Notes: a model not told the origin generated them from the letters alone. A stretch of 64,000 nucleotides of DNA from Minisyncoccota bacterium (GCA_041651055.1 JBAZJW010000001.1:177021-241020), one strand, 5' to 3'. Shown: positions 2,643 to 26,285, counted from the stretch's first letter. A program made the numbers and translations.

Positions 2643-3089
2643 ATGAAATTTTTTACATCTATTTCTCGCATCAAAAGATACACCATCATACTTGGAATGG
2701 TTCTTTTAGTCCCACTTGCATACGCTGCAACACAAGCATCGTTCTTACAACCCAGCACTCTTTTCACTTCACCCGAGACGAATCCTCTCGCTAAGGAGTA
2801 CGAATTAAAACCGCTTTTCTCCTCCACTGAACAAGTAAAGAAAGGTTTAATTGAGGGTATTAATAAAGAACAAGGGTCTTTTGTTTTACGAACAGGAACA
2901 ACATCGCTGGTGATAGAAATTGTAAAAGATACAATAGTCGCGACAGGAAAAGAAAACATCGTTCTCTTTTCAGCGTTAGAAAATAATACAAAGGTGTATG
3001 TTTTTGGATTTATGAAAAGTGACAAGACTTCTCTTCTCGCTTCCAAAATAATTATCGTAAATAGAAGCGTACTAGAAAGAGTTCGTTAA
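2643..3089 (+). CDS. secreted hypothetical protein
   Basis: Signal-peptide-like N-terminus MKFFTSISRIKRYTIILGMVLLVPLAYAA; preferred over fully overlapping antisense ORF 2600..3046. Confidence 0.4.
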   Translation: MKFFTSISRIKRYTIILGMVLLVPLAYAATQASFLQPSTLFTSPETNPLAKEYELKPLFSSTEQVKKGLIEGINKEQGSFVLRTGTTSLVIEIVKDTIVATGKENIVLFSALENNTKVYVFGFMKSDKTSLLASKIIIVNRSVLERVR

Positions 3090-3793
3090 TTTTCCTTTTC
3101 TATATTTTCATGAAGAAAAATATCTTCTTTTGGAAACGTAGCATTATCACGGATAAAACTCTTTCCCATCCCTTTACGAAATCTATGCCGCGATCTCGTA
3201 TATGCGAAAAGTGCAAGTGTGCTTAAGGTAAGCAATGCGCCGAGTCCCGCAGATAACAAATCTTTTGTTGTATCAAAAGGGTCATTGCCTCCGATAAATA
3301 AGTACCCTATGGCCGCATCGTACTTGAGCACGGTCACCCATTCAAAAATTTCATAGAACACTCCAAGTGTGAGTACGGCCATGAAAGGAACGAGGTAACC
3401 CCAAAAACCTTTTATCTGTGCAACGCGTAAGAAAAATTCACGAAGTGGATACACAATTAAAAGCCCAAAAGAAAAGTGGACGAATTTATCGTACATATTA
3501 TCGTTCACATTAAAGATATCTCCTATAGTTTTACCGAATGGTACAGACCCGTAATTGTAATGAGATCCAACAAGATGTAGCATGATAAATATCGTAATCA
3601 ATGTAAGCGACAATTTTGAAAACTGAATATACCAAACACAAAAAAAGTAGACAACAGGAACAGAAAGAAACACTGTTTTATTTTCTAAAAACCAATTCTT
3701 TTCACTTGCTGGGTACCATGCGGACCATAGCCATACACAAACAAAGAAAAAAAGGAGAATATATTTGTAATAGGTATTAAAAAATAATTTCAT
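3086..3793 (-). CDS. polytopic membrane protein, YjdF/DUF2238-like
   Basis: 235 aa with multiple TM segments; weak resemblance to YjdF-type inner membrane proteins. Confidence 0.35.
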   Translation of the reverse strand: MKLFFNTYYKYILLFFFVCVWLWSAWYPASEKNWFLENKTVFLSVPVVYFFCVWYIQFSKLSLTLITIFIMLHLVGSHYNYGSVPFGKTIGDIFNVNDNMYDKFVHFSFGLLIVYPLREFFLRVAQIKGFWGYLVPFMAVLTLGVFYEIFEWVTVLKYDAAIGYLFIGGNDPFDTTKDLLSAGLGALLTLSTLALFAYTRSRHRFRKGMGKSFIRDNATFPKEDIFLHENIEKEN

Positions 3794-3803
3794 AAAGATA
3801 CGG

Positions 3804-4415
3804 TTAGCGTCTTGAAAGTCTCCTCATTCTTTTGAAAAGACGATACTCAATAAGCATGAGCATAATGCCTAGAGAGACAATCACGAACGTCGCCTCAAAC
3901 AAAAACTCAATATTCTGCTCCCATTCACTTCCCAAAAAATAACCAACCAGCCCATATAAGAGAACGTAGGCGATTTCCCCAGCGATTTCGATCATAAAAA
4001 ACGTTTTGTATTTCATTTTTCCAAGCCCTGCAAGAATATTCACCAAAGGACCGACAGTTGTCAAAAATCTACTAAAGAAAATAAGAGAGTACGAGAACTC
4101 TCTAAGGTAAAGGATGACAGATTCATACAAGCGAGAAGCCAAGATTCTTCTAAATCCTATTTTTTGTAATATCTCGACACCGTACAAACGAGCCAAAACA
4201 TAACCCGTCAAATCCCCAAAAAAATTACCGAGGAATGCTACGACAAGAACCCATGTAAGACTAAAATATCCTTGGGCCGCGAATGCGCCTGACGCAGCGA
4301 GAACAGCACTCGACGGAAGCGGCGCCACAAGTGCCGCAAGATAAGAAACCAAAAAAAGCGCAACATATTTATAGAGCAGGAGGAACGAAAGTACTGAATC
4401 AAGAATCGTAATCAT
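3804..4415 (-). CDS. DedA/VTT family membrane protein
   Basis: YKYVALFLVSYLAALVAPLPSSAVLAASGAF...GNFFGDLTGY typical of DedA (SNARE-associated) family. Confidence 0.7.
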   Translation of the reverse strand: MITILDSVLSFLLLYKYVALFLVSYLAALVAPLPSSAVLAASGAFAAQGYFSLTWVLVVAFLGNFFGDLTGYVLARLYGVEILQKIGFRRILASRLYESVILYLREFSYSLIFFSRFLTTVGPLVNILAGLGKMKYKTFFMIEIAGEIAYVLLYGLVGYFLGSEWEQNIEFLFEATFVIVSLGIMLMLIEYRLFKRMRRLSRR

Positions 4416-6345: not shown

Positions 6346-6651
6346 GTGGCTATTCTAAAAAGAATACTAATCTACATACAACATATGGAAACATTTACCA
6401 TCAACAAAAAGAAGGCGATTATTACAGGAGGTGTCATCGTCGCGTTTATTATAGGAATACTATTTGGTCTGGGTATCGGATCCCACAGAGGAAGAAATTA
6501 TGAAGGGAGGGGGATGATGAGATATTCCAATAATCAGTTCGGAGGAAATCCTACAGACCGACAAGGAATGATGTATCGCATGCATGCTGGACAGTGGAAC
6601 ACTACAGCAACAGGAACTCTTCCTGTAAGCACAACAACAGAAAACAATTAG
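6346..6651 (+). CDS. small membrane protein
   Basis: TM segment then Gly/Met/Asn-rich tail. Confidence 0.3.
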   Translation: MAILKRILIYIQHMETFTINKKKAIITGGVIVAFIIGILFGLGIGSHRGRNYEGRGMMRYSNNQFGGNPTDRQGMMYRMHAGQWNTTATGTLPVSTTTENN

Positions 6652-6671
6652 TCTTTTGTTGTATTACAAAT

Positions 6672-6702
6672 AAAAACTACACCCATACGGGTGTAGTTTT
6701 TA
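6672..6702. terminator. bidirectional rho-independent terminator
   Basis: CTACACCC-ATAC-GGGTGTAG hairpin flanked by A-run and T-run between convergent genes. Confidence 0.6.
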
Positions 6703-6715
6703 GTATTCAATACTA

Positions 6716-6979
6716 CTACTGAGCATCAGAATGAAGCCTGTTCCAAAGCACTGAAATAACAAAACCAAAGAGGTAGCCGATAAGTGTCGTGCATACAATC
6801 AGTGTAAGAGATGCTACTCCATTAAACTGGCCAACTGAAAACATTGGCGTAATCATATGTGCCCAAAAAATAACATCAAAGAAACTTTGGCCGAGATTTA
6901 AGAAAACAAGAAGTGACCAAAACGCATGAAGTCCTCCGATAAGCACTGCAAACAAAAGACCGATTTTGTTATTGTTCAT
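6716..6979 (-). CDS. small membrane protein
   Basis: 87 aa, two to three TM helices. Confidence 0.35.
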   Translation of the reverse strand: MNNNKIGLLFAVLIGGLHAFWSLLVFLNLGQSFFDVIFWAHMITPMFSVGQFNGVASLTLIVCTTLIGYLFGFVISVLWNRLHSDAQ

Positions 6980-7042
6980 AAAAATATTCTTATTGTTACT
7001 AATACACTAAAGTATATTCCTCTTTTTGTTTTTGTGAATAGT

Positions 7043-7270
7043 TTATCTACGGGGCCTCTCTACTGTTGCAATATAGAGCTCTTCTACTTTCTGACGTGCC
7101 CATGGTGTTCTTCGTAAAAATTTAAGACTCGAAGAAACACTTGGATCAGTGGTGAAACATTTTATAGTAATGCTTTCACCGAGATCTTTCCATCCATAAT
7201 AATCAACAAGATACTCTACGATAGACTGAAGTGTTTTTCCATACAGAGGGTCATTTGGATGTTCAGTCAT
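7043..7270 (-). CDS. DUF2132 (VF530-like) small conserved protein
   Basis: 75 aa; YGWKDLGE...[29 protein letters not shown] matches my memory of the DUF2132 family pattern. Confidence 0.5.
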
Positions 7271-7284
7271 GAGCGGTACATGAA

Positions 7285-8340
7285 TTATTTTTCCACAACA
7301 TCATTTACAAGATATGTGTAAATAGAAATAAACGCAAAGAGTAAACTCATCGTAAGAGAGCCTAAGAAAATACCAATAGGGCCGAAAAAGATAATACCAC
7401 CCAAAACAGAGAGAAGAACAAAGAGTGGATGGATCTGTAATTTACGACCAACAAGCTTCGGACCAAGAACATTATCAATCATACCGACAGCAATAGCTCC
7501 CCATATCATGAGACCTACAGCAGAAACAGTATTTCCAACGACGAAGAGATAGATGACGCCCGGAATAATGATCAGCGCTGTACCAATTCCAGGAATAAGT
7601 GCCGCTATAACCGTAAGCGTTCCCCAGAGGATACTATTTGGAATTCCGAAGATTGTGAATCCAATAGTAGTGAGAATTCCTTGTATAAGAGCAATAAGGA
7701 GGCTTCCTTTTACAACAGAGTTCACCGCTGACTCGAGGCGTTCAAAAACAATTTTATCATCCTTATCATCAAGAGGACTTAGCTTAATGATTGCATCTTT
7801 TACCTTAGAACCATCTCGGAGTAAGTAGTAGAGTGAAATAAAGAAAATGAAAAGGTTAAGAAGAAGTGCAGAGATTCCTGAAAGAGCAACACCGAGATGT
7901 TCGATAAGCCATGAAAGACCTTGCTTGATATACATATCGAGATTTGCGGAAAGATTCAAGAAAAATTCACCTGTTCCAGGTACTATCTTTTCAAATGTCT
8001 GCCCAGCGCTTTGAAGTACAGTGACAGCGAGGTCTTGTCTATTTTCTCCCTGAATCGTAGAGCTGTAGAGCGCAACTGCTTCATGGAATATTTGAGTGCC
8101 TAGAAATGTGAGAGGCAAAATAATACAAACGAGACTCACAAAAACAGTAGAGAGAGAAGCAAGTGCCTCTCTATTACCAAAAACACGCAAGAGCTTCCTA
8201 TATAGAGGCTGAAGCACGACTGCGAACATTGCAGCCAAGGCAAGCGGGGCCAAGAATGGCTTGAGAATAAAAAATGATAAAAGTAAAATCCCTGCAAGAA
8301 GTAAAATCAAAAAAGGAAGCTGAAGTTTTCGGTTATTCAT
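7285..8340 (-). CDS. AI-2E family transporter (UPF0118/PerM-like)
   Basis: 351 aa polytopic protein, N-terminal [22 protein letters not shown] typical of the family. Confidence 0.75.
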
Positions 8341-13759: not shown

Positions 13760-13797
13760 GCATTTAATTATAGCAAACTAACAACATACTTCGTACT

Positions 13798-13819
13798 TGA
13801 GGGGATGAATTGGAACAAA
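13798..13819 (+). repeat. degenerate copy (#0) of the GAGCTGGGRC-N3-TGGGACGA-N2-GTTGGAAC intergenic motif
   Basis: GAGGGGATGAATTGGAACAAAT shares the GGGA..G..TTGGAACAAwT core with copy #1. Confidence 0.3.
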
Positions 13820-13821
13820 TC

Positions 13822-14154
13822 TTAAAAAGTAAGAGCTTCGATTCCACGCTTAATAGCCACAAATCCATACCCCCACAAAAATGGGAGCCATACTGGCATA
13901 ATTCCAAATAAGGAATTTCTGGTAAATGTCTCTACTCCAGTAGCTATAAAAAAGTATTCGAATATAATCATTACAACAAATCCAAAAAGTAAAACGAAAA
14001 TATCTTTTTTAGTACATTTAATAAGATAAAGTGAAAGAGAAATTATTAAGATGTAGAGTAACGTTAAATAATAATCATTTAGAATAATTGGAATAAGTCC
14101 AATCATAACGAGAACAGGGAGGGATACCATGAAAATATATTTCACTTGTTGCAT
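13822..14154 (-). CDS. hypothetical membrane protein (cassette 1)
   Basis: 110 aa, three TM segments. Confidence 0.35.
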   Translation of the reverse strand: MQQVKYIFMVSLPVLVMIGLIPIILNDYYLTLLYILIISLSLYLIKCTKKDIFVLLFGFVVMIIFEYFFIATGVETFTRNSLFGIMPVWLPFLWGYGFVAIKRGIEALTF

Positions 14155-14178
14155 ACTTGTAGTATAGCATTGGATAAT

Positions 14179-14207
14179 TCTGTGGGACGAGGTTGGAACA
14201 ATTATTT
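14179..14207 (+). repeat. intergenic motif copy #1
   Basis: TCTGTGGGACGAGGTTGGAACAATTATTT. Confidence 0.5.
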
Positions 14208-14756
14208 CCCAAAGAGATATTCAAAAGCCTCATTTCGAACACCTTCAAAATCATGCGACACATCAAAATATTTAATCGCGTATTTCTCACATTCTTGCCT
14301 CAAGTATTTACTAAACTCAATCATTTCATCAATCATGGACAACATTTCTTCATCAGAAACACTCTTCGTCCAGTCTATATCACCCTGATGATGCTCTCTT
14401 ACCAAGGCAAGCTTTTCATCTTTCGTTAACTCTGCGTAACCTAAGAAGCAACACTTAACTGGTTTCCCGGCATCAATAAGCTCACTAACTTGGCTTGGCA
14501 AAAGTGAATCACCTTCGATGAGATAGTCACGTTCTTCTTTGAAAAAGAAATTAAAGAAGTGATTTACTAGTGGCCATATTTTCTTTGGTCTATCAAGCAA
14601 AGAATCTTGGTACTTCAAACCAATCTCTGGGACGCCATGTACAACCGCACCGAAGAGAACGTCGAGAGGGAAATAGGGGATCTGTTTTTCAGCAACAGCC
14701 CTACGTGCAAGTAGTGTCTTTCCTGAACGTGACGCGCCGGCAAGTAGATATAACAT
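14202..14756 (-). CDS. P-loop NTPase, putative small-molecule kinase (cassette 2)
   Basis: Walker A GASRSGKT near N-terminus. Confidence 0.5.
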   Translation of the reverse strand: MLYLLAGASRSGKTLLARRAVAEKQIPYFPLDVLFGAVVHGVPEIGLKYQDSLLDRPKKIWPLVNHFFNFFFKEERDYLIEGDSLLPSQVSELIDAGKPVKCCFLGYAELTKDEKLALVREHHQGDIDWTKSVSDEEMLSMIDEMIEFSKYLRQECEKYAIKYFDVSHDFEGVRNEAFEYLFGK

Positions 14757-14837
14757 TTGATAATTATATCATTTATTTATGTAAACACACCAAAGATTAA
14801 AGTATAGATTTCTTTATTCTGTATAGTTATTTTACTT

Positions 14838-14867
14838 AGCTGGGACTGTGGGACGATATTCGAACGG
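14838..14867 (+). repeat. intergenic motif copy #2
   Basis: AGCTGGGACTGTGGGACGATATTCGAACGG. Confidence 0.55.
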
Positions 14868-14876
14868 TTTTAGTTT

Positions 14877-15593
14877 CTACTTCAAAGCAAACGGGTTGAA
14901 GTTTGTCCCGTGATCGTAGGTATCCAACCCCTCCTTCTCCTTAACAATTTTAATCACCCTTCTAGTAACTGGTAGGGCAAGAACCTCCCATGTAGTACAG
15001 AAAAGCACAGTAGATATAACAAGCGGTACAAGCTCTGGAAGAGTAAACCATCCGGCAAAGTAGAAGACAGCAAAGAAAGCAATTCCGTTATCTACGATTT
15101 GTCCGAATAATGTTGAAATCACAAGTCTTGCATTGAGATACTTTCCTTTGAAATGCAGTTTCATTTTCGCAACTATGTATGAGTTTGTCAGTTCACCAGA
15201 AAAGAACGCAACAATAAAAGCAACAGCAACGATTGGTGAAGCTTTAAAGATAGCGTTGAATGCATCATTTAATTCAAATGACGGGTTTGGAACGATGCTG
15301 TAAATGTATGTAAGTGTTGAAGCTAGTAACATACATCCAAATCCAGTCCATACGACTTTTCTAGTAACTCTGTATCCATATACTTCAGTAAAGATATCAG
15401 CAAAAATATAAACAAATGGATACGCTAACGCACCAACTGAGAAAACAAACGTCCCTATGTAAAAAGTTTTTAAAGAAGTAAATACCCCTACAAGAAGAAC
15501 CGTAACCCACAGCATCGCAAAAATGATTAAGTACTTATGAGGCTGATGCGCCGAAATCACTGGATCCGTTATGAGTGCGTTGTTTTGGGTCAT
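14877..15593 (-). CDS. YhhQ/VUT family membrane protein, putative queuosine-precursor transporter (cassette 3)
   Basis: YPFVYIFADIFTEVYGYRVTRKVVW resembles the YhhQ conserved block. Confidence 0.55.
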   Translation of the reverse strand: MTQNNALITDPVISAHQPHKYLIIFAMLWVTVLLVGVFTSLKTFYIGTFVFSVGALAYPFVYIFADIFTEVYGYRVTRKVVWTGFGCMLLASTLTYIYSIVPNPSFELNDAFNAIFKASPIVAVAFIVAFFSGELTNSYIVAKMKLHFKGKYLNARLVISTLFGQIVDNGIAFFAVFYFAGWFTLPELVPLVISTVLFCTTWEVLALPVTRRVIKIVKEKEGLDTYDHGTNFNPFALK

Positions 15594-15627
15594 ATGTGTA
15601 AAGTCTAGCGCATATATCTAAAAAAGC

Positions 15628-15656
15628 GAGCTGGGGCCATGGGACGAAGTTGGAAC
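15628..15656 (+). repeat. intergenic motif copy #3
   Basis: GAGCTGGGGCCATGGGACGAAGTTGGAAC. Confidence 0.55.
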
Positions 15657-15708
15657 TTTTTTTGGAAAAGAGGTAGGATACTGTCAGACAACCAAGAAAG
15701 GGTTCGAT

Positions 15709-16320
15709 ATGAACATTCCATCTTTCCAAATGACCGGCTACGTTAAGACCGTGCTCGTTGCCCACCAACATGACACACATGTTTCCACCCCATCGGAAAA
15801 GATCAAACTGATCCAGGGGCAGGGTGTGCTGCATGACAACCACTACGGGCCACGTCTCGTAGACATTCGCGATTCGAGCATTCTTCGTTTCGGTCTTCCG
15901 AAAGGTATGGAGTGCTTCAATGCAAGACAGTGGAGCGCGGTCTCCCAGGAGGAGCTTGATGAAATCTCGCAGCTCATATATATCCCGGGCATCAATCATG
16001 GACTTCTGGGTGAAAACCTTGTGATCTCCGGAATTCCGAGGTTTACCCAGCTCCCTTCGGGAACTCAACTATTCTTCAAGGGGCAGAAAGGCGAGCTGCG
16101 CTCAACTGTACTTTGTGTTCATAAAGAAAATAACCCTTGCCATCTGCCCGGCGAGATGATTCAAGCGCAGTTTCCAGGACAAGAGAAACTTGCGGGGGCA
16201 TTCACGAAGCATGCCAAGCGTCGGCGAGGCGTCGTGGGGTTCGTTATTTGTTCCGGCTTTGTGAAGAAGGGAGACACCGTCATCGCTGAAGTTCCGGAAC
16301 AACAACTCTACGAAGGATGA
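15709..16320 (+). CDS. MOSC domain protein (cassette 4)
   Basis: HGLLGENLVISGI block and conserved Cys typical of MOSC (YiiM-like) proteins. Confidence 0.6.
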   Translation: MNIPSFQMTGYVKTVLVAHQHDTHVSTPSEKIKLIQGQGVLHDNHYGPRLVDIRDSSILRFGLPKGMECFNARQWSAVSQEELDEISQLIYIPGINHGLLGENLVISGIPRFTQLPSGTQLFFKGQKGELRSTVLCVHKENNPCHLPGEMIQAQFPGQEKLAGAFTKHAKRRRGVVGFVICSGFVKKGDTVIAEVPEQQLYEG

Positions 16321-16336
16321 TGAGGCATTCGTTGCC

Positions 16337-16385
16337 GCCAAACAAAACCGCCAAGTCAGTTTTGTTTGGCGGTTTTGTTTTTGTT
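16337..16385 (+). terminator. rho-independent terminator
   Basis: 12 bp stem GCCAAACAAAAC/GTTTTGTTTGGC followed by GGTTTTGTTTTTG. Confidence 0.6.
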
Positions 16386-16393
16386 AAAACTAC

Positions 16394-16422
16394 GAGCTGG
16401 GACTGTGGGACGAAGGTGGAAT
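16394..16422 (+). repeat. intergenic motif copy #4
   Basis: GAGCTGGGACTGTGGGACGAAGGTGGAAT. Confidence 0.55.
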
Positions 16423-16473
16423 TAATTTATATAAAAGTGTAGAATAAAATCAATAGCACAAAGGAGAATACAA

Positions 16474-16800
16474 ATGCTTACCGTAACCGAAGTCCCAACC
16501 AAGTCTATCCGGCTATCCGTCCAGATTGAAGATATGGAAATTGGAAGAGCTTGGCTTGTATTGATCAAAAATGACCTCCACTTAAAACCTTACGGCCTTC
16601 TTGAAGATGTGTGGGTTGACTCTAATCACAGAAAGCAAGGTCACGCCACAGCTCTTGTGCAAAAGATCATTGAAATAGCTAAACAAGAAGGCTGTTACAA
16701 GATTATTGCAACAAGTCGTTTCGAACGAGAGAAAGTTCACGACTTATACAAACATCTGGGCTTTATTTCTCACGGATTTGAGTTCAGAATTAATTTGTAA
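16474..16800 (+). CDS. GNAT family N-acetyltransferase (cassette 5)
   Basis: VWVDSNHRKQGHATALVQKIIEIAKQEGCYKI acetyl-CoA binding motif A. Confidence 0.7.
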   Translation: MLTVTEVPTKSIRLSVQIEDMEIGRAWLVLIKNDLHLKPYGLLEDVWVDSNHRKQGHATALVQKIIEIAKQEGCYKIIATSRFEREKVHDLYKHLGFISHGFEFRINL

Positions 16801-16828
16801 AATAAATTCCAGTCAATCAAGAGTTGCA

Positions 16829-16858
16829 GACCCACTTCGGTGGGCTTTTCTTTTTCTA
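16829..16858 (+). terminator. rho-independent terminator
   Basis: CCCAC-TTCG-GTGGG hairpin followed by CTTTTCTTTTTC. Confidence 0.5.
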
Positions 16859-16864
16859 AAAACT

Positions 16865-16894
16865 CAAGCTGGGGCTCTGGGACGACGTTGGAAC
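16865..16894 (+). repeat. intergenic motif copy #5
   Basis: CAAGCTGGGGCTCTGGGACGACGTTGGAAC. Confidence 0.55.
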
Positions 16895-16960
16895 AGAATT
16901 ATTTACTTCGAGTTCTATAAAATAAGTAAGAATTTTCATGTAAAAACGTCATCATATATT

Positions 16961-17512
16961 ATGAAAGTAAAGCACTTGCAACAATCTGGGGAAAAGAGTA
17001 GTGTTAATAGTCTTAATAAAGACTATACTAAAGATATGCTTACTAAGAATCTTCAGCTTCTTAGCTACCTTACAAAGAAGCACCCTCATGCTTCAGTAAC
17101 TGTGTTAATTAAATTATGCTATTTAGTTGATTTAGTTAGTATTAAAAATGGTAGTGAGAAGATTTCAAATTTTACATATATCAGATACTTTTATGGACCT
17201 TTTGACAAAAGTATCTACACAGAATTAGACCAATTACTTGAAAGTGGTGTATTAATAGCAACACCAGAATACAAAGGCGATTCTGAAACAATAATTTATT
17301 CTTTCAACGAAGAAAAGAAACTAGATACTTCCGCTTTAGATAAAAATGAAATAGCTATTCTTGATGAAGTACTAGATTCACTCGATGGGTATGGAGCAAA
17401 GGCACTTACAGATGTTGCCTACAGTACTGCGCCTATGCAAGCACTTAACGCAACTTTAGGTGGTGACGAAAATCTTGGTGTTGAACTTAATCTAAACTTA
17501 GTAAGAGCTTAA
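16961..17512 (+). CDS. Panacea-domain (DUF4065, SocA/PanA-like) protein, candidate antitoxin
   Basis: VTVLIKLCYLVDLVSIKNGSEKISNFTYIRYFYGPFDKSIYTEL matches the KLLYLaD ... yGPv..vY core of the Panacea domain as I remember it; start set at ATG 16961 downstream of GNAT terminator. Confidence 0.45.
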   Translation: MKVKHLQQSGEKSSVNSLNKDYTKDMLTKNLQLLSYLTKKHPHASVTVLIKLCYLVDLVSIKNGSEKISNFTYIRYFYGPFDKSIYTELDQLLESGVLIATPEYKGDSETIIYSFNEEKKLDTSALDKNEIAILDEVLDSLDGYGAKALTDVAYSTAPMQALNATLGGDENLGVELNLNLVRA

Positions 17513-17517
17513 TTTTT

Positions 17518-18030
17518 ATGCCAATGTCTGACGCTGAACATCTAGCTTGTATTAAGCCACGTTCAGCATACATGGACTTCAGGTCATTAGAAGAATCTAC
17601 AGGTGAAGTTAATGCAAAGTATAAATTACTGACAAAAAAATTAGCAGGTGTTTATTTTTTTCACGTTCTTACAAAGAGTGGGATAACTTATCCTCAAGAA
17701 TATCGCATGGAGATACTCAGAAATGATTGGGAATCGCGTGAGCCCCATCCAAGAGGAATGCACCTTGATGAAGATGCTTCGTATTTAGGTTGTCAGCATT
17801 TCCATATGATGAGTGAAAGAGATGTACTCCTTAAAAGGAAAGAATTTCGTAATGGTTTCAATATAAGTGGGCTGTTAAGTCAGACAAAATTTACAGAAGT
17901 TACAGATTTTATAAAAAGAAGTGGAGGTGTCTACTCAAGAAAATCTAATGTAGTGATTCAAGAAGATATAGAGTCTGTTTTTAATAAAGGGGTTATATCG
18001 GATAAAATAAGAAATAAACTCGGGCTTTAA
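17518..18030 (+). CDS. hypothetical protein, candidate toxin partner of the Panacea-domain gene
   Basis: 170 aa ORF starting 6 nt after upstream stop; no recognisable domain. Confidence 0.35.
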   Translation: MPMSDAEHLACIKPRSAYMDFRSLEESTGEVNAKYKLLTKKLAGVYFFHVLTKSGITYPQEYRMEILRNDWESREPHPRGMHLDEDASYLGCQHFHMMSERDVLLKRKEFRNGFNISGLLSQTKFTEVTDFIKRSGGVYSRKSNVVIQEDIESVFNKGVISDKIRNKLGL

Positions 18031-18049
18031 TTATTCTTTTTTGTATAAG

Positions 18050-19711
18050 TTAAGATAATCCATCAATATACTGTATTGGTGTTATACCATAATCCCACAC
18101 AGTTGAACTTCTTGAAGGGTCAACTGCCCCATGAACCGCAACACCAAGAACACCATTGTCTTTATCAACTACTGGTGAACCACTCATTCCTTTGTAAATC
18201 GGTTTATCAATTGTAAATCTCTCAATACTAAGTATTCCTATACCGTTACTTTTTGAACTAATTTTTCCTTCGTAACATTGTGGAGTGTCATTGGTTCTAT
18301 ATCCAGGAAATCCAACAACCGTTATAGCCTCTTTAATTTGAGGAGTTTCAATTGTGCTTTTTTCAAGACTAAAGAATGTTACTGTTGTTGGTGCTAATAT
18401 TTTTAAAACTGCTAAATCAGGAATAGAGCTTTGTTTTACAACCTCAGCTTTGTATACGTCCTTAGTTTCAGAGTTGTAAACTTCAACTATTCCACAAGCA
18501 CCATCTATAACATGATAACAAGTTACAAGCCCAACATCTCTCAACATGAAAGCTGTGCCAGTATATCCGACAGAAGTTTTAATTACCCATATTGCACGTT
18601 TCAATTCATCAATTGCACTAACAGGTAAGTCTACTGAGTGTGGGTCTATTAAACGATTAAGCCTATTTTTAAACTTCCTGTATATTGGATCTTTCCCACT
18701 TCTGATAAATTTTAAGAAAGATATTTTCCCATATAAAACTGGTGTTAGATCTGGTTCATCTTGACGACTGGGATGTAATCTAAAATACACGTTCGAGGCA
18801 TTTACTTTTCCAAATCTTTCCCAAGCATATAATATTGTTCTCAATTCTCTAATGTATTTTCTGGAAACATTACTAAATTCATTAACGGTAAGGCCAGTAA
18901 CTTCTTGTCTCATATAATGTCTCTGTAACCTAACTTTTGACTGATTAATTGAGAAATTATTTTTTTGAATGATTGAAGTTAATTTTTGTCCACATGTAAT
19001 TATTCCGTGTGAACGGGAAACAATATCAAGATTTAGTTCTCTAGAGTTTGTAGAAAAAGTAATGTCATCTGCATATCTTGTATATAAACAATTAGTTTCT
19101 TTTGCTAACTTTTGTAAATCATTATCTAATGTATAGCAAATTAGATTTGATATAACTGGAGAAGTGGGGGCTCCTTGTGGAAGCTTACCCTCATAACAAC
19201 AAATTTGAGCAAGTAAAATTGCAACTTCTCTTGGGAAAGAAAAAGCTGTTGATTGAAATAATCCTATTATACGACCTACATGAATTGATGGGAAGAAGTT
19301 TTCTAAATCAATATTAAAAACAAGATTTTTTCTTGCGTGTAGTCTTGCGTTATCTAAAATATCTTTATCTTTACAAAATCCATAAACAGATGATTTTGGT
19401 TTATAAGCTAAGTATAGAATATATGCCAATTTTTTTTGTAAAATTTTAAGATTAGATATTGGTGCTAAAATCTCTCTTTGTCCACCACTTTTTTTCTTAA
19501 TATAAAATTTTGTATACGGAACTGGTTTATCTGGTCTGTAAAGTAGGTAAATTATTGTAGAGTAGTCAACCTCTAAAAGGTCAGCAACGTCTTGTTTGCT
19601 TTTTAGTGCTCTAAAAATTTTTAGAATATCGTCATCACTTCTTGTTAAGGTTGGTTTCATTTCTGTGTAAAAGAGAGAGTGGAATAATTCTTCCTCCTGC
19701 AAAACAAACAC
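18050..19711 (-). CDS. retron-type reverse transcriptase fused to C-terminal trypsin-like (S1) serine protease
   Basis: RT motifs KKKSGGQREI, NARLH (NAxxH), FNIDLENFFPSI, LPQGAPTSPVISN, YTRYADD, RQEVTGLTVN (VTG); C-terminal GTAFMLRDVGLVTCYHV (His), IPDLAVL (Asp), GMSGSPV (Ser) triad; GTG start. Confidence 0.8.
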   Translation of the reverse strand: MFVLQEEELFHSLFYTEMKPTLTRSDDDILKIFRALKSKQDVADLLEVDYSTIIYLLYRPDKPVPYTKFYIKKKSGGQREILAPISNLKILQKKLAYILYLAYKPKSSVYGFCKDKDILDNARLHARKNLVFNIDLENFFPSIHVGRIIGLFQSTAFSFPREVAILLAQICCYEGKLPQGAPTSPVISNLICYTLDNDLQKLAKETNCLYTRYADDITFSTNSRELNLDIVSRSHGIITCGQKLTSIIQKNNFSINQSKVRLQRHYMRQEVTGLTVNEFSNVSRKYIRELRTILYAWERFGKVNASNVYFRLHPSRQDEPDLTPVLYGKISFLKFIRSGKDPIYRKFKNRLNRLIDPHSVDLPVSAIDELKRAIWVIKTSVGYTGTAFMLRDVGLVTCYHVIDGACGIVEVYNSETKDVYKAEVVKQSSIPDLAVLKILAPTTVTFFSLEKSTIETPQIKEAITVVGFPGYRTNDTPQCYEGKISSKSNGIGILSIERFTIDKPIYKGMSGSPVVDKDNGVLGVAVHGAVDPSRSSTVWDYGITPIQYIDGLS

Positions 19712-19828
19712 ACTTACATAGCAACATTTGCCAAAAACACAAGGGCACGTATCATCTCACCTTAGATACATCGTCGCGTATACACAACGAATAGCAATTT
19801 CCACTCTCTCTTTTAAAAAGAAACTTAC
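19671..19828 (-). ncRNA. candidate retron msr/msd-like non-coding RNA
   Basis: 13 nt perfect inverted repeat AAGAGAGAGTGGA (19801-19813) / TCCACTCTCTCTT (19671-19683, minus-strand sense) bracketing about 117 nt directly upstream of and overlapping the RT start; TATAAT box about 25 nt upstream on the minus strand. Confidence 0.25.
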
Positions 19829-19918
19829 CAGTTGTATTATAAAACAATTACATTATTAATCCTAAAAATGTATTATTTACTCATGTGTATCTGTTTAAGT
19901 GAGTTGTATCTTCTGTTA

Positions 19919-20128
19919 TTATTTTATAATAAATTTTGCACCGGTCTTCTCCATTAAATCTCCTAGTTGCTTACTCGTCTGCCCCAAACTATTAAATAAT
20001 TCTACAATTCGGGAATCTTTTTCTTGAAGTTGTGCTACAAGTTTTCTGTTATCAATAAATAAACCAGCAGTAGCAATACAAGATATTACTAACAACACTG
20101 CTAAAAGTAGAGTGATTTTAGATTTCAT
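19919..20128 (-). CDS. small secreted or membrane-anchored coiled-coil protein
   Basis: 69 aa, N-terminal MKSKITLLLAVLLVISCIATAG signal/lipobox-like segment. Confidence 0.35.
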   Translation of the reverse strand: MKSKITLLLAVLLVISCIATAGLFIDNRKLVAQLQEKDSRIVELFNSLGQTSKQLGDLMEKTGAKFIIK

Positions 20129-20452
20129 ACGTAAGGTTCTATATTAAATTTTTGGTAGCAAAACACCGCCATAGAAATAGGAGAACCTTACGAGTAGACC
20201 CACTCCATGGCGGAGCTTTTATCACAAGGTATTAGGTTTGTTTTGTAAACATAGCATAACAGGGTACAAGGAACCTCTCCCTCAGTAAACTTTTGTCGTC
20301 ACAAAAGTTTCTTCGGGCAACTCTCGTGGTTTCTTTTGCTAAAGAAACATCACTCCGAGTATTCGAGTCCTTGCCGTGAAGGACCCAACGTCCTTCACTT
20401 ACCCCAGCTCACACGACAAAAAAGCGTACTTCGTACTCGATGAAAAGTGTGA

Positions 20453-20523
20453 GCTGGGGTACAAGGACTCGAACCTCGATACTCAGGACCAAAACCTGAT
20501 GTCCTACCATTAGACGATACCCC
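20453..20523 (-). tRNA. tRNA-Gln (anticodon UUG)
   Basis: Cloverleaf folds by hand: 7 bp acceptor stem (U1-A72), U8, D arm GTCT/GGAC, anticodon stem TCAGG/CCTGA with loop TTTTGGT (U33, anticodon TTG), T arm CGAGG-TTCGAGT-CCTTG, discriminator G, no encoded CCA. Confidence 0.75.
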
Positions 20524-20813
20524 AAGATGTAAGTTTTTAGTTGATAGTTATTATTTTTTAGTTAATGCAAAATGAAATTCATTGTGCGGCATGCAATACC
20601 AAAAAAATGACTATCAGTTATTAGCTAGGAGAAATTAAATTCAGAGAATTTCTTACCCCTAACTCCTAACCGTAAACTCCTAACTAACCAAAACACAATA
20701 CCATTTTTGAGAGATTTTTGGAAGAGGGAAGGAAAGATTCTCGGTGAGAGCGCTGTCACAGTAAGCTTTTTGAAATTATACACAGCGTCCACAGAACACC
20801 ACGAAAATTTTGC

Positions 20814-21699: not shown

Positions 21700-21762
21700 T
21701 ATGTCATTCCCGCGAAGGCGGGAATCCATTACCTAGATTCCCGCCTTCGCGGGAATGACATA
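21700..21762. repeat. GC-rich twin-hairpin palindrome
   Basis: Two 26 nt perfectly complementary arms TATGTCATTCCCGCGAAGGCGGGAAT / ATTCCCGCCTTCGCGGGAATGACATA separated by 11 nt; each arm is itself a hairpin. Confidence 0.6.
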
Positions 21763-22412: not shown

Positions 22413-22994
22413 ATGTCATCCATTCCTGCAGACGTTTTATCACGAGCAAATGCAATAGGATTCTTTGGTGTTCTGATTCTTCTCATCGCATATTTCTTTG
22501 AAGGTCCACCACTTGGACTTTTTGATATTGGTAAGCATTTACCATCACAAGAAATACCTACGTATTACCAAGTGACGAAAGTTACCGATGGCGACACGAT
22601 TCATGTGAATATAGAAGGTGCAGATGAGGTGATCCGTCTTATTGGTATCAACACACCTGAAACTGTCGACCCACGACGACCAGTACAATGCTTCGGCAAA
22701 GAAGCCTCTGCCAGAATGAAAGAACTTGTCGGAGGGAAAATAGTACGTCTCGAATATGACGACTCTCAAAGCCTTCGTGATACTTACAATCGTTTACTTG
22801 CTTACGTGTACCTTGAAGACGGGGAAATGATCAATCGTAAAATGATTGCAGAAGGGTATGCCTATGAATACACCTACATGACACCGTACAAATATCAGCG
22901 TGAATTTCGTGAATTACAAACCCTCGCACGCACGTCAGCGCGTGGCCTTTGGGCACCAGAAACCTGTAACGGAAGTAAAACACTTTCGAAATAA
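22413..22994 (+). CDS. membrane-anchored thermonuclease (SNase-like)
   Basis: TDGDTIHVNIEGADEVIRLIGINTPE ... RLLAYVYLEDGEMINRKMIAEGYA typical of staphylococcal nuclease homologues. Confidence 0.75.
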   Translation: MSSIPADVLSRANAIGFFGVLILLIAYFFEGPPLGLFDIGKHLPSQEIPTYYQVTKVTDGDTIHVNIEGADEVIRLIGINTPETVDPRRPVQCFGKEASARMKELVGGKIVRLEYDDSQSLRDTYNRLLAYVYLEDGEMINRKMIAEGYAYEYTYMTPYKYQREFRELQTLARTSARGLWAPETCNGSKTLSK

Positions 22995-24836: not shown

Positions 24837-25133
24837 TCATTGTGATTGTGTGAACAATCTTTCGAGGTCATCGAGACCATTTACGTGCAGTACTGTTCCA
24901 TCTCTCGTGGTTATGACAATATGAGGAACGACCTTTGCAGGATATTCCTCCATGAGCTCCTTCCATTTTGGTCCTCCGAAGAAGAACTCTTCAGGGACGA
25001 CGTTCTGAAGTCGGTGTTTAAGCAAGCTTTTGGCTCGAGCGCAAAAACCGCACGGCGGAGATATTCTGGTGAAAATCACGACTCCTCGGACCTCTTCGGA
25101 TGAGAGTGCTCTAGGTTGTTCGACGGCAAACAT
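24837..25133 (-). CDS. glutaredoxin/thioredoxin-like protein
   Basis: CGFC (CxxC) redox motif after a beta-strand VVIFTRISPP; start placed at internal ATG. Confidence 0.5.
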   Translation of the reverse strand: MFAVEQPRALSSEEVRGVVIFTRISPPCGFCARAKSLLKHRLQNVVPEEFFFGGPKWKELMEEYPAKVVPHIVITTRDGTVLHVNGLDDLERLFTQSQ

Positions 25134-25167
25134 CTTTTGTGAACCTTTCTGAAAGGAGAAGATTATC

Positions 25168-25210
25168 AACAAGGCGAGGCCTTGTAGCTACAAGGCCTCG
25201 CCTTGTTACC
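25168..25210. repeat. perfect palindrome (twin hairpin) AACAAGGCGAGGCCTTGT-AGCT-ACAAGGCCTCGCCTTGTT
   Basis: Each 18 nt arm is itself the hairpin ACAAGGC-GAG-GCCTTGT; a single arm recurs at 30735-30752. Confidence 0.6.
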
Positions 25211-25542
25211 AGCAAAAGTGCTGACACTTATTCATACCATATTTATATGGAAGCGGGCAAATGGGAAAATATTTAATACAACAATATTTAATATTCAAAT
25301 GAATCAAATGCATTTAATCCAAAAAACTCCTCTAGGCTTGCAGGGGTTCTCTGAATTAGTATTTACCTCTTTGTATTTAATTGAATATTATTACGAGCAG
25401 TCTGTATAAAAAAATAGAACCCCCAAAGTGGAGGTTCAGAATGGTCCTTAAGCATTCAATGTGTGAGGATGTTTCGTCAACGGACGATCCACACAGGTTA
25501 CGGAATGGGCGCCGAATGGCTCGGGCCCAACCACCACGCAGT

Positions 25543-26016
25543 TCAGGAGAACGTGCCCGCAGCGACCGTGCCAGCGTCGTCGGCCTGCTTCAGCGCAACT
25601 TCGTCGGCGCCGGGCTGATCCTTGGCCGTGTCGGTCGTGCCGGCGTCCTGCTGCTGTTGACCTTCGATGTTTTCACCAGCGCCGAACTGCTTTTCGCCGT
25701 GCAAAATATCGGTGGTGCCCGCCGCGGTCTTGGCCACGCCGCCTTGCTGCTGCTGGATCAATTTCGACTCGTCGTTGCCGATCTGGTTCACGGCGCCCGT
25801 GGTGCCTTGTTCCATCTGCGGGCTTTGGCCGGTGGCGGTCACGCTGATGTCGGCAGGTTGCGCGCCGGCGTTCACGGTGGTCTTGTGCGGATCGGAGGCG
25901 GCCAGCGCGTCGGGCTTCACGGCGGAATGGATCACATCGGTGCCGTGCGCGGCGCCAACGGCCTGATTCAAAAACAGCGCACCGAGGATCGAGAGACGCA
26001 ATTTCAAGTGGTTCAT
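25543..26016 (-). CDS. secreted Ala/Gly/Thr/Gln-rich protein encoded in a ~65% GC insert
   Basis: ATG preceded by AGGAG RBS, signal peptide MNHLKLRLSILGALFLNQAVGAAHG; composition sharply different from flanks. Confidence 0.45.
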   Translation of the reverse strand: MNHLKLRLSILGALFLNQAVGAAHGTDVIHSAVKPDALAASDPHKTTVNAGAQPADISVTATGQSPQMEQGTTGAVNQIGNDESKLIQQQQGGVAKTAAGTTDILHGEKQFGAGENIEGQQQQDAGTTDTAKDQPGADEVALKQADDAGTVAAGTFS

Positions 26017-26285
26017 GGAAAGCTCCTGGTTGAATTGAAGGGAACGGGAACAACGTGCCACAACGGGATGTTGCGACAAGTAATACTCTACCACATACAT
26101 CAAAATCCTGTCAAGGGATATGGGGATAGTCAAAAGTCTATAAAGTTGAAAGTTCATAAAGTAAATACGGCATACAAATATTCAATGATTCAATTTTCAA
26201 TATTCAAACGATAATCAAAACCACTCCCTCAGTATCCACTTTTGACTTTACGGACTTTCTAAACTTTATAGACTATACTAAGACC

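Follow-up and report, generated by a model that had tools for sequence, protein, structure and literature searches.

A repeat array beside tRNA-Gln in a Minisyncoccota genome probably marks element-side half-sites of large serine recombinases

Serine recombinases recombine at a central dinucleotide. In the att sites of serine integrases, such as those of Listeria phage A118/LI, attP and attB are bound by the recombinase domain at identical positions, the motif of the zinc-ribbon domain lies 5 bp closer to the centre in attB, and the attP half-site spans 25 bp (Rutherford et al., PMC3783163). Large serine recombinases (LSRs) also drive the insertion of staphylococcal cassette chromosome (SCC) islands at the 3' end of a conserved housekeeping gene, orfX/rlmH, the enzyme there being CcrAB (PMC3026799), and they are used by some of the tycheposons, islands that integrate at specific tRNA genes in the streamlined genomes of Prochlorococcus (10.1101/2020.12.28.424599). 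Integrons, with their integrase IntI and the sites attI and attC, carry mostly single, promoterless, unrelated, co-oriented open reading frames (ORFs), each closely followed by a conserved site and in an order that varies. The locus considered here is an array of short direct repeats that separate single genes on the 3' side of a tRNA-Gln gene, in a stretch of 64,000 nucleotides from a Minisyncoccota bacterium (GCA_041651055.1, JBAZJW010000001.1:177021-241020; hereafter the window, with positions counted from its first letter). Patescibacteria, also called the candidate phyla radiation (CPR), have very small genomes, and to our knowledge few of their mobile elements have been characterised. 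Judged from the sequences of the window and of related genomes, the repeat probably consists of a crossover core (GCTG, usually GCTGGGG) followed by the ~25-bp P' half-site of elements whose LSR directs them to the tRNA-Gln 3' end. A literature search, in an incomplete library, brought up neither the motif nor the arrays.

Between 13.5 and 17.3 kb of the window the repeat follows GCTGGGRC-NN-TGGGACGA-NN-KTNGAAY and is ~28 nt long in its five clean copies. These and a degenerate copy lie on the + strand at 13.8-16.9 kb; the tRNA gene and its trailer follow at a distance:

13787-13816, + strand: degenerate distal copy, TACTTCGTACTTGA-GGGG-ATGAATTGGAAC
14180-14199, + strand: copy 1, CTGTGGGACGAGGTTGGAAC, putative P' half-site only, the GCTGGGG core missing
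14839-14865, + strand: copy 2, GCTGGGACTGTGGGACGATATTCGAAC, putative core and P' half-site
15630-15656, + strand: copy 3, GCTGGGGCCATGGGACGAAGTTGGAAC, matches the pattern of core and P' half-site
16396-16422, + strand: copy 4, GCTGGGACTGTGGGACGAAGGTGGAAT, behind the terminator of the MOSC gene
16868-16894, + strand: copy 5, GCTGGGGCTCTGGGACGACGTTGGAAC, behind the terminator of the GNAT gene
20259-20452: structured tRNA-Gln trailer module, z = -10.1
20453-20524, - strand: tRNA-Gln(UUG), the sole tRNA of the window

The segment TGGGACGANNKTNGAAY is found without mismatch at 14183-14199, 14849-14865, 15640-15656, 16406-16422 and 16878-16894, and these remain the only five matches when up to two mismatches are allowed (shuffled sequences gave a mean of 1.3 and reached five in 1 of 100). 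The 5' part, AGCTGGGRCNNTGGGACGA, is present in four copies against an expectation of 0.1. Each intergenic gap between single genes holds one copy, at spacings of ~380, 659, 791, 766 and 472 bp, and no further significant copies were detected on either strand of the window outside 13.8-16.9 kb. The original prediction, made from the sequence of the window, had described six repeats in one orientation, one of them degenerate, placed at gene boundaries some 380-790 bp apart, two of them directly behind terminators; all of this is borne out (the copies lie ~380-791 bp apart, and hairpins precede the copies at 16396 and 16868). Its motif formula, with spacers of three nucleotides, has zero matches as written, the true spacers being 2 nt, and the AAAA-N3 prefix that it counted as part of the motif is not conserved beyond this window.

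Read on the + strand, the 3' end of tRNA-Gln is GCTG-GGGTACAAGGAC-TCGAACC. The nonamer GAGCTGGGG at 20451-20459 comprises this 3' end and 2 nt of trailer, and is direct with respect to the motif. The proposed identity between the 5' part of the motif and the tRNA end and trailer therefore stands for GAGCTGGGG and its orientation, but the repeat does not duplicate the tRNA end, with which it has only GCTG(GGG) in common. Similarly, the array does lie on the 3' side of tRNA-Gln, but not immediately downstream of it as had been stated, as ~3.5 kb and four genes intervene (a toxin-antitoxin pair, a gene for a reverse transcriptase-protease fusion and a small ORF). The tRNA-Gln 3' end, on the + strand, appears to be a crossover core followed by an attB-type (B') half-site.

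The window does not contain the enzyme. In agreement with the original prediction, neither a serine nor an XerD-like recombinase was found among its six-frame ORFs of at least 100 aa, and tblastn with LSR and replication-protein (Rep) queries gave no match except 19 LSR codons that are contributed by the tRNA antisense. All-against-all clustering of 8-kb loci around the motif in other genomes brought up no recurring recombinase, only dnaX and ABC genes, and Pfam scans of 40 window, 48 cassette and 126 flanking ORFs listed no recurring recombinase family. The LSR of locus L134 (L numbers denote the fetched loci), a chance neighbour, was used as seed against the six-frame ORFs of all fetched loci and matched in many Saccharibacteria loci; in several of these the 3' end of the LSR gene overlaps the 3' end of a convergent tRNA gene. 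A recombinase search in related genomes, as the original prediction had advised, in this way located an LSR at the tRNA junction of complete elements.

One such element, of 4.4 kb, is present in L055 and consists of GCTGACCCTATGGGACGAAGTTGGAAC at 3425-3455, cargo and an LSR gene at 6383-7891, whose last codons are the antisense of tRNA-Gln at 7831-7902. The protein has Resolvase, Recombinase and Zn_ribbon_recom domains; its homologues at E<1e-30 number more than 2,500, and four of them were looked up (L135, L136, L137 and L138). In L137 a junction of trailer and motif at 3961 is followed by OLD-like, DUF2726, helix-turn-helix (HTH), Phage_CRI Rep and LSR genes, the LSR gene overlapping tRNA-Gln(UUG), and three older motif copies lie further out. 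In L138, the contig of L006, trailer and motif meet at 808 and are followed by FtsK_gamma, GmrSD, EcoRI-type methylase, Phage_CRI and LSR genes, the last overlapping tRNA-Gln(CTG). L136 resembles these two, its contig stopping at the junction. Complete elements in relatives are 4-7 kb long with the motif at the far end and the LSR at the near end, and once an element is integrated the final 19 residues of its LSR are encoded by the tRNA-Gln antisense. From these relatives we infer that the enzyme behind the repeats of the window was likewise an LSR, unlike the tyrosine integrase that is usual for tRNA islands.

The structure of the junctions can be read directly by sequence comparison. The order is LSR end, GCTG and tRNA in L055, L136, L137 and L138, and LSR end, GCTG and motif in L135. 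The latter has a P arm in common with L055 and L136 (ttttctcaatt) and continues with GCTGGGTGCGCTGGACGAAGTTAGAACC where the others have the tRNA, its site reading ttttctcaatt GCTG GGTGCGCTGGACGAAGTTAGAACC; the LSR alignment stops exactly at the core. This is the un-recombined configuration, in which the P arm is followed by GCTGGGTGCGCTGGACGAAGTTAGAACCGCTTTA (the motif) and by the cargo of a second element, and the LSR-motif junction of L135 is best described as attP-type. On the other side, L040 and L050 have trailer-GCTGGGG-TACATGGACTCGAACC, which is the tRNA, and L005 has the same trailer, with ~90% identity over ~135 nt up to the break, and then GCTGGGG-CTGTGGGACGATGTTGGAAC (the motif). 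An identical break appears when the tRNA of L018 is compared with the distal motif copies of L018, L006 and L015, and when L028 and L030 are compared with the trailer of the window. Because the trailer is common to the tRNA and the motif sides up to the break, a recombination event in or at GCTG(GGG) must have linked the motif to the flank of the tRNA. The chimeric junctions, the complete elements in relatives and the link to tRNA-Gln together support the serial integration at a tRNA att site, or cassette array, that was originally proposed.

Further LSR genes that end in a convergent tRNA gene were seen in Saccharibacteria contigs, at 303-1916 in L076, 3026-4648 in L084, and 14736-16310 and 16806-18383 in L108; the tRNAs are tRNA-Asn in L076 and L108, tRNA-Gly in L084 and tRNA-Ala in L108. 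The entire LSR family may thus be directed at the 3' ends of tRNA genes, the tRNA antisense completing the reading frame.

The spacing of the conserved blocks, counted from the G of GCTG, distinguishes the motif from the tRNA:

tRNA-Gln, Saccharibacteria type: GGAC at 13-16, T(C/G)GAACC at 17-23
tRNA-Gln, Parcubacteria type: GGAT at 13-16, T(C/G)GAACC at 17-23
motif: GGAC at 13-16, T(C/G)GAACC at 22-28

Relative to both tRNA-Gln types, the motif has its distal block shifted outward from the core by 5 bp, and the conserved block ends ~25 bp from the core. Considering how serine integrases bind their sites, the 5-bp offset and the ~25-bp span suggest that the motif is an attP-type (P') half-site and the tRNA an attB-type (B') one. 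In the numbering of PMC3783163 the distal block falls at 16-24, which would place the crossover within GCTGG, in agreement with the junctions; in L055 the two ends have only TTGCTG in common and the crossover is placed within it. Conservation of the motif across phyla would be expected because P' must mimic the T-loop/acceptor sequence of the tRNA, which is itself constrained. Folding of 76-nt windows around four copies gave, on both strands, energies no better than those of shuffled sequences (z from -0.70 to +0.70). As there is no fold on either strand, the motif is likely to be recognised as duplex and not as an attC-like hairpin.

The motif is not confined to the window. A scan of 185,579 species genomes (one per species) with GCTGGGRCNNTGGGACGANNKTNGAA returned 38 stretches where by our estimate about one match is expected by chance. 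Of these, 34 came from records named as Patescibacteria/CPR or unclassified bacteria, and the remaining four from contigs binned or labelled as Lacipirellulaceae, Anaerolineae, Bdellovibrionales and Doudnabacteria. The phyla represented are Saccharibacteria, Paceibacterota, Nomura-, Moran-, Nealson- and Jorgensenbacteria and Minisyncoccota. Across many Patescibacteria phyla a block of 33 nt is conserved, GCTGGGGCTATGGGACGATGTTGGAACCTATTT; in 78 non-redundant copies it takes the form GCTGGGGCT[A/G]TGGGACGA[T/A]GTTGGAAC(C)TNTTT, with a sharp 5' edge at GCTG and unconserved flanks. The bases after GCTG are variable in some lineages (GCTGAACGT, GCTGGCAGT) and TGGGACGANGTTGGAAC is constant. With an nhmmer profile made from the scan copies, co-oriented arrays were found in which strands are never mixed within a locus (eight copies in 8 kb in L009, seven in L017, six in L012 and six in L026). 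Where a fetched locus contains both, the motif always runs antiparallel to tRNA-Gln (50 copies in total) and in 47 cases lies on the 3' side of the gene, the exception being L002. The ends of tRNA-Gln differ between lineages (..TACCCCAGC, ..CCCGCAGC, ..CCGGCAGC) and the motif is the same.

As a control, ~0.8 Mb of Saccharibacteria contigs were fetched by way of an unrelated neighbour gene, SNase (22413-22994 in the window). The motif occurs there only in L055 and L090, both times beside tRNA-Gln, which excludes the genome-wide intergenic repeat that the original prediction had named as refuting it. L040 and L050 have the same SNase-tRNA-Gln synteny as the window and no array. Several contigs break at this place: L045 and L051 end exactly at tRNA-Gln (positions 1-72), and L136, L137 and L139 end at the LSR/tRNA junction. 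Such ends fit a polymorphic hotspot with strain-level heterogeneity, and the breaks would bias metagenome-assembled genomes against recovery of these islands.

The arrays probably arose in the following manner. On the motif strand, attB would consist of the tRNA trailer, GCTG and GGGTACAAGGAC TCGAACC (tRNA antisense), and attP of the last LSR codons, GCTG and GGGCTATGGGAC GATGT TGGAACC. Integration would create trailer-core-P', i.e., the motif, at the far end of the element and LSR-core-tRNA at the near end, where the LSR frame would be completed by tRNA antisense. Later elements would insert on the tRNA side and push older ones outward, and upon loss of the recombinase and replication modules the cargo genes would stay, each abutting a P' half-site. 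In the complete element of L137 the cargo gene beside P' is antiparallel to the motif and its stop codon is 13 nt away. As L137 already shows this cargo-P' geometry, an element that lost its HTH-Rep-LSR module would be left with the cassette geometry of the window. In the arrays, 41 of 57 ORFs are antiparallel to the motif, hence co-oriented with the tRNA, and the gene at the GGAAC end mostly stops ~1-30 nt from the motif in a per-copy listing.

Viewed in this way, 13.79-20.26 kb of the window would be an LSR-less accretion of five single-gene cassettes and one defence block; other arrays without an LSR are those of L009, L012, L017, L020, L026 and L121. The degenerate copy at 13787-13816 consists of a remnant of the trailer hairpin, TACTTCGTACTTGA (compare 20426-20439), joined to GGGG and ATGAATTGGAAC. 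It has the architecture of the intact junctions of trailer and motif in L005, L006, L015, L018, L135 and L137 and is best taken as the outer limit of the island, in the form of a decayed attL-type junction. A search in relatives for the left flank of the window, as the empty site of this lineage, gave no match. The genes of the island are:

13822-14154, - strand: 110-aa membrane protein, weak DUF2878 match (Pfam)
14202-14756, - strand: 184-aa P-loop protein, no Pfam family, homologues in L120-L122 and L127
14877-15593, - strand: Vut_1/YhhQ-type transporter (Pfam)
15709-16320, + strand, as the motif: MOSC domain protein (Pfam)
16474-16800, + strand: GNAT acetyltransferase (Pfam)
16961-20128: larger cargo block of four genes without internal motif copies
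16961-17512, cargo block: SocA/Panacea antitoxin
17518-18030, cargo block: 170-aa partner ORF, no Pfam match, starting 5 nt past the SocA/Panacea gene
18050-19711, - strand: reverse transcriptase-trypsin protease fusion, 553 aa (RVT_1)
19919-20128, - strand: small ORF

The Pfam matches agree with the view that the cassettes are unrelated accessory genes (weak DUF2878, Vut_1, MOSC and GNAT, the P-loop-like protein being without family). The same heterogeneity is found across 48 cassette proteins, which include SpoU, ABC, DUF2726, LPG synthase, M20, AIPR, HAD, amidase and HhH-GPD matches among others. The 45 intervals between motif copies have a median length of 707 bp, and 27 of them contain exactly one ORF. 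Cassettes also occur in different company. The 184-aa P-loop protein has 127 homologues with 54-89% identity, the named sources being all Patescibacteria groups. In L120-L122 the first gene to follow tRNA-Gln(CTG) codes for the 89% copy, with a degenerate motif behind it to which copy 1 of the window (14180-14199) is homologous, and the stretch of DNA identity between the window and L121 (82%) begins 19 nt before the start codon and breaks off within the motif. The array of L121 also carries a homologue of the GNAT gene in the same orientation to the motif as in the window and at a different array position. A 74% copy of the P-loop protein is the third cassette after dnaX-tRNA-Gln in L131, and a 62% copy lies in a four-copy Parcubacteria array between recA and ftsK in L127. 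In addition, two blocks of flank and motif are in swapped order in L001 and L009; the array of L001 and that of L013 belong to one complete genome, OY969803.1. The exact MOSC cassette protein was found only in the same arrangement as in the window.

Two side observations concern the P-loop gene. In L127 (10001-10594) it lacks a stop codon and reads through the motif to give a 197-aa protein. Around its homologues in L130 (156-10233), L131 (6918-13637) and L133 (707-15918) there are runs of 12-20 small co-oriented unrelated genes, the motif being absent in L130 and L133 and only degenerate in L131; these runs may be old arrays with decayed sites or arrays that use another site variant.

A number of observations do not fit comfortably with accretion of LSR elements at tRNA-Gln. 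First, apart from the 19 tRNA-antisense codons there is no LSR, Rep gene or remnant of either in the window. Second, random decay does not account for the very regular spacing, in which 27 of 45 intervals (median 707 bp) contain a single gene. Third, some arrays (those of L017, L018 and the window) contain duplicate trailers, a feature that would not be expected from simple integration. Fourth, the copies of L002 are on the 5' side of the tRNA, and the Parcubacteria array of L127 is without tRNA-Gln within 10 kb. Fifth, the P arms (e.g., cctaaaaaactcgctttttctcaatt) are unlike the reverse complement of P', so that the expected pseudo-dyad is weak, and only a loose pattern is common to the P arms of different subfamilies. 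Finally, for canonical serine integrases neither attR nor attL is a recombination partner of attP. Tandem accretion and internal junctions of the L135 type would therefore need relaxed selectivity, integration of multimers or another route.

It is tempting to speculate that the cassettes move on their own. In one version, to which we give perhaps one chance in a few, they would form a serine-recombinase counterpart of the integron, in which LSR-less cassettes, each a gene with a ~33-nt half-site and a minimal P arm, are captured, excised and reshuffled one by one at tRNA-Gln by the LSRs of autonomous Rep-LSR elements acting in trans. A full integron-like platform, where single-gene cassettes are mobile as circles with a short attP (P, core and P') and are captured and reshuffled singly at tRNA-Gln by a recombinase in trans, is rather unlikely. 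It would explain why one ORF is found in 27 of 45 intervals of median 707 bp, why the functions are all different, why the same gene and motif recur with different neighbours and at different array positions, why flank-and-motif blocks are swapped between L001 and L009, and why long arrays have no LSR remnants. The tRNA-proximal junction of L121, moreover, retains ~25 nt resembling an LSR P arm at a place where there is no LSR gene. However, the left flanks of the array copies are heterogeneous (trailers, terminators, promoters) and have no conserved P half-site, neither a free circle nor an attP junction of cassette size was observed, the viral-contig collection lacks the motif, and the full elements already show the cargo-P' geometry, so that decay of LSR elements can give the pattern.

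Classical tRNA-island scars, in which elements with a tyrosine integrase would have left behind part of the tRNA-Gln 3' end, are very improbable. The repeats are near tRNA-Gln and share GAGCTGGGG with it, and both L090 and the trailers do contain genuine partial copies of tRNA-Gln, but the motif itself shares only 4-9 nt with the local tRNA and remains the same across phyla with differing tRNA-Gln acceptor stems. None of the arrays has an XerD-like tyrosine recombinase next to it, no recombinase family recurs in 126 flanking ORFs, and the junctions are occupied by LSRs, so that this explanation is contradicted by the LSR-tRNA and LSR-motif junctions. Hardly any weight remains for a cis-regulatory or RNA element that travels with accessory genes (a promoter with -35-like TTGGAA, an operator with three TGGRRC iterons, a terminator or a tRNA-like 3'-UTR signal), because, for all that the motif is intergenic, that three window copies are 52-66 nt upstream of + strand genes, that the iterons are visible and that terminators or promoters often abut it, its orientation follows the tRNA and not the neighbouring gene, it folds like shuffles (z from -0.7 to +0.7) with no Rfam family at the motif, it is absent from the rest of the window, and the chimeric junctions and the LSR frame through the motif would be left unaccounted for.

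Other candidates were tried and rejected. A sigma-54 or sigma-70 promoter does not agree with an orientation that tracks the tRNA and not the genes; for a structured RNA or attC-like hairpin there is no fold signal, Rfam giving the tRNA alone; and in a tRNA-like 3' fragment or tRNA pseudogene the T-arm cannot form, the similarity being limited to blocks and ascribed to half-site mimicry. A dispersed repeat, either repetitive extragenic palindromic or of the miniature inverted-repeat transposable element type, was discarded as there are no other copies in 64 kb, a single orientation per locus and a restriction to tRNA-Gln in ~0.8 Mb. A phage attP was rejected on the absence of the motif from the IMG/VR viral-contig collection, and uptake sequences, Ter sites, dif/Xer sites and Tn7-like ends for want of genome-wide spread, dyad symmetry or conserved termini.

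Returning to LSR integration, the present junction between tRNA-Gln and its trailer looks like a free attB, the array being attached beyond the ~200-nt trailer module that contains a decayed tRNA-Gln 3' half. The module begins with this decayed direct copy (GGGTACAAGGAACCTC..CTCAG, + strand, like the tRNA antisense), and at 20361-20410 it contains an inverted copy of the tRNA 3' end, split by a 9-bp hairpin. Its last ~25 bp would serve as the B arm of attB. Folded as single-stranded DNA with the tRNA 3' end, 20259-20475 reaches -55.9 kcal/mol (z = -10.1), and the inverted tRNA 3'-end copy (TTCGAGTCCTTG..TACCCCAGC) pairs with the tRNA antisense. Modules of ~200 nt are also found in L014, L018 (three times), L006, L015, L028, L030 and L090. 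The hairpin, of 9-10 bp, differs in sequence in every lineage and its pairing is kept, as read by eye (arms GTGAAGGAC/GTCCTTCAC, GCAAGCAAA/TTTGCTTGC, GCATCACAA/TTGTGATGC, TAACATGCT/AGCATGTTA and GTGAGTGAC/GTCACTCAC). The module could be a terminator of the tRNA, an accessory structure of attB or a scar of past recombination. In L090 a second, partial tRNA-Gln with anticodon arm and 3' end lies at 3011-3155, 130 nt past the real gene; it has a 97-nt insertion with two hairpins in place of the variable loop and 5' T-stem, and its 3' part is found again at 4232-4266.

In the larger cargo block, the SocA/Panacea gene and the 170-aa ORF (16961-18030) are likely to be a toxin-antitoxin pair inside the island, and the reverse transcriptase-protease fusion (18050-19711) is probably a defence gene carried as cargo. 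Homologues of the fusion with 39% identity are present in L075 and L076, and a reverse transcriptase lies beside the motif in L005. A 25-nt inverted repeat (92%) at 19660-19684 and 19799-19823 spans the start of the gene and may be the mark of a retron-like non-coding RNA. On the far side of tRNA-Gln a perfect 27-nt inverted repeat with a 9-nt spacer (TATGTCATTCCCGCGAAGGCGGGAATC / GATTCCCGCCTTCGCGGGAATGACATA) at 21700-21762 is the longest palindrome of the region. Further away, 25001-26000 has a local G+C of 0.53 compared with ~0.41 for the window and holds ORFs at 25203-25409 and 25381-26214, for which no Pfam match was obtained, nor any Rfam family there.

Interpreted as LSR half-sites, the repeats belong to a widespread family, with more than 2,500 LSR homologues and arrays in Saccharibacteria, Paceibacterota, and Nomura-, Moran-, Nealson-, Doudna- and Jorgensenbacteria. 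This interpretation defines attB exactly (the tRNA-Gln 3' end) and adds to it an attP half-site and a hypervariable island whose cargo includes reverse transcriptase-protease, toxin-antitoxin, restriction-modification, OLD-like, GmrSD and DUF3800 genes. It accounts for the breaks of metagenome contigs at tRNA-Gln in these organisms and offers candidate integrase/att pairs for genetics in a group that is hard to manipulate. Should cassettes indeed be mobile in trans, tiny genomes of several phyla would have a dedicated platform for sampling genes in common.

The likeness to integrons lies in the single, mostly co-oriented and unrelated ORFs, each closely followed by a conserved site and varying in order; here, several cassettes carry promoter-like or terminator sequences of their own. 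In contrast to integrons there is no IntI, the site is an unstructured duplex of 33 nt and not a folded palindrome, and the array is anchored at a tRNA gene. No IntI/XerD-like recombinase is next to any array, and none recurs in the 48 cassette and 126 flanking ORFs. As for attC, whose imperfect palindrome folds in single-stranded form and bears R''/R' boxes, the motif has no inverted partner copy, GTTGGAAC does not fit GTTRRRY, and there is no GTTRRRY/RYYYAAC pair. The tycheposon islands are similar in their tRNA-specific integration in streamlined genomes, in that new arrivals push older ones inward, in the scattered partial att repeats and degenerate remnants, and in a cargo of defence and niche functions (10.1101/2020.12.28.424599). 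Their repeats are partial tRNA copies, whereas those described here are element-side half-sites that are found across phyla and delimit short regular cassettes.

With SCC islands the arrays share LSR-driven insertion at the 3' end of a conserved gene, tandem units, short direct repeats, variable cargo and members without a recombinase, such as pseudo-SCC (PMC3026799). The layout of SCC is found in the tandem elements of L135, with their internal attP-type junction, together with the LSR-less arrays. SCC units are, however, tens of kb long and have ~18-19-nt integration site sequence (ISS) repeats, compared with often single genes of ~0.5-0.8 kb, a tRNA target and Patescibacteria hosts in the present case, and the likeness is one of architecture only, with no homology of the LSRs to CcrA/B implied. 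The closest correspondence in the sites themselves is to serine-integrase att sites (PMC3783163). Both have a recombinase with Resolvase, Recombinase and zinc-ribbon domains, a short identity between partner sites, an element-side half-site of ~25 bp with its distal block 5 bp further out, and hybrid junctions that flank the element. Compared with A118/LI, the target here is a tRNA 3' end, the LSR frame crosses the att site so that the C-terminus would change on integration, the elements are small (4-7 kb) with a rolling-circle-type Rep (Phage_CRI) and no phage structural genes, and many putative P' half-sites stand in tandem without a recombinase. On this comparison the repeats are probably the product of a known kind of mechanism, LSR integration, in a little-studied group of bacteria.

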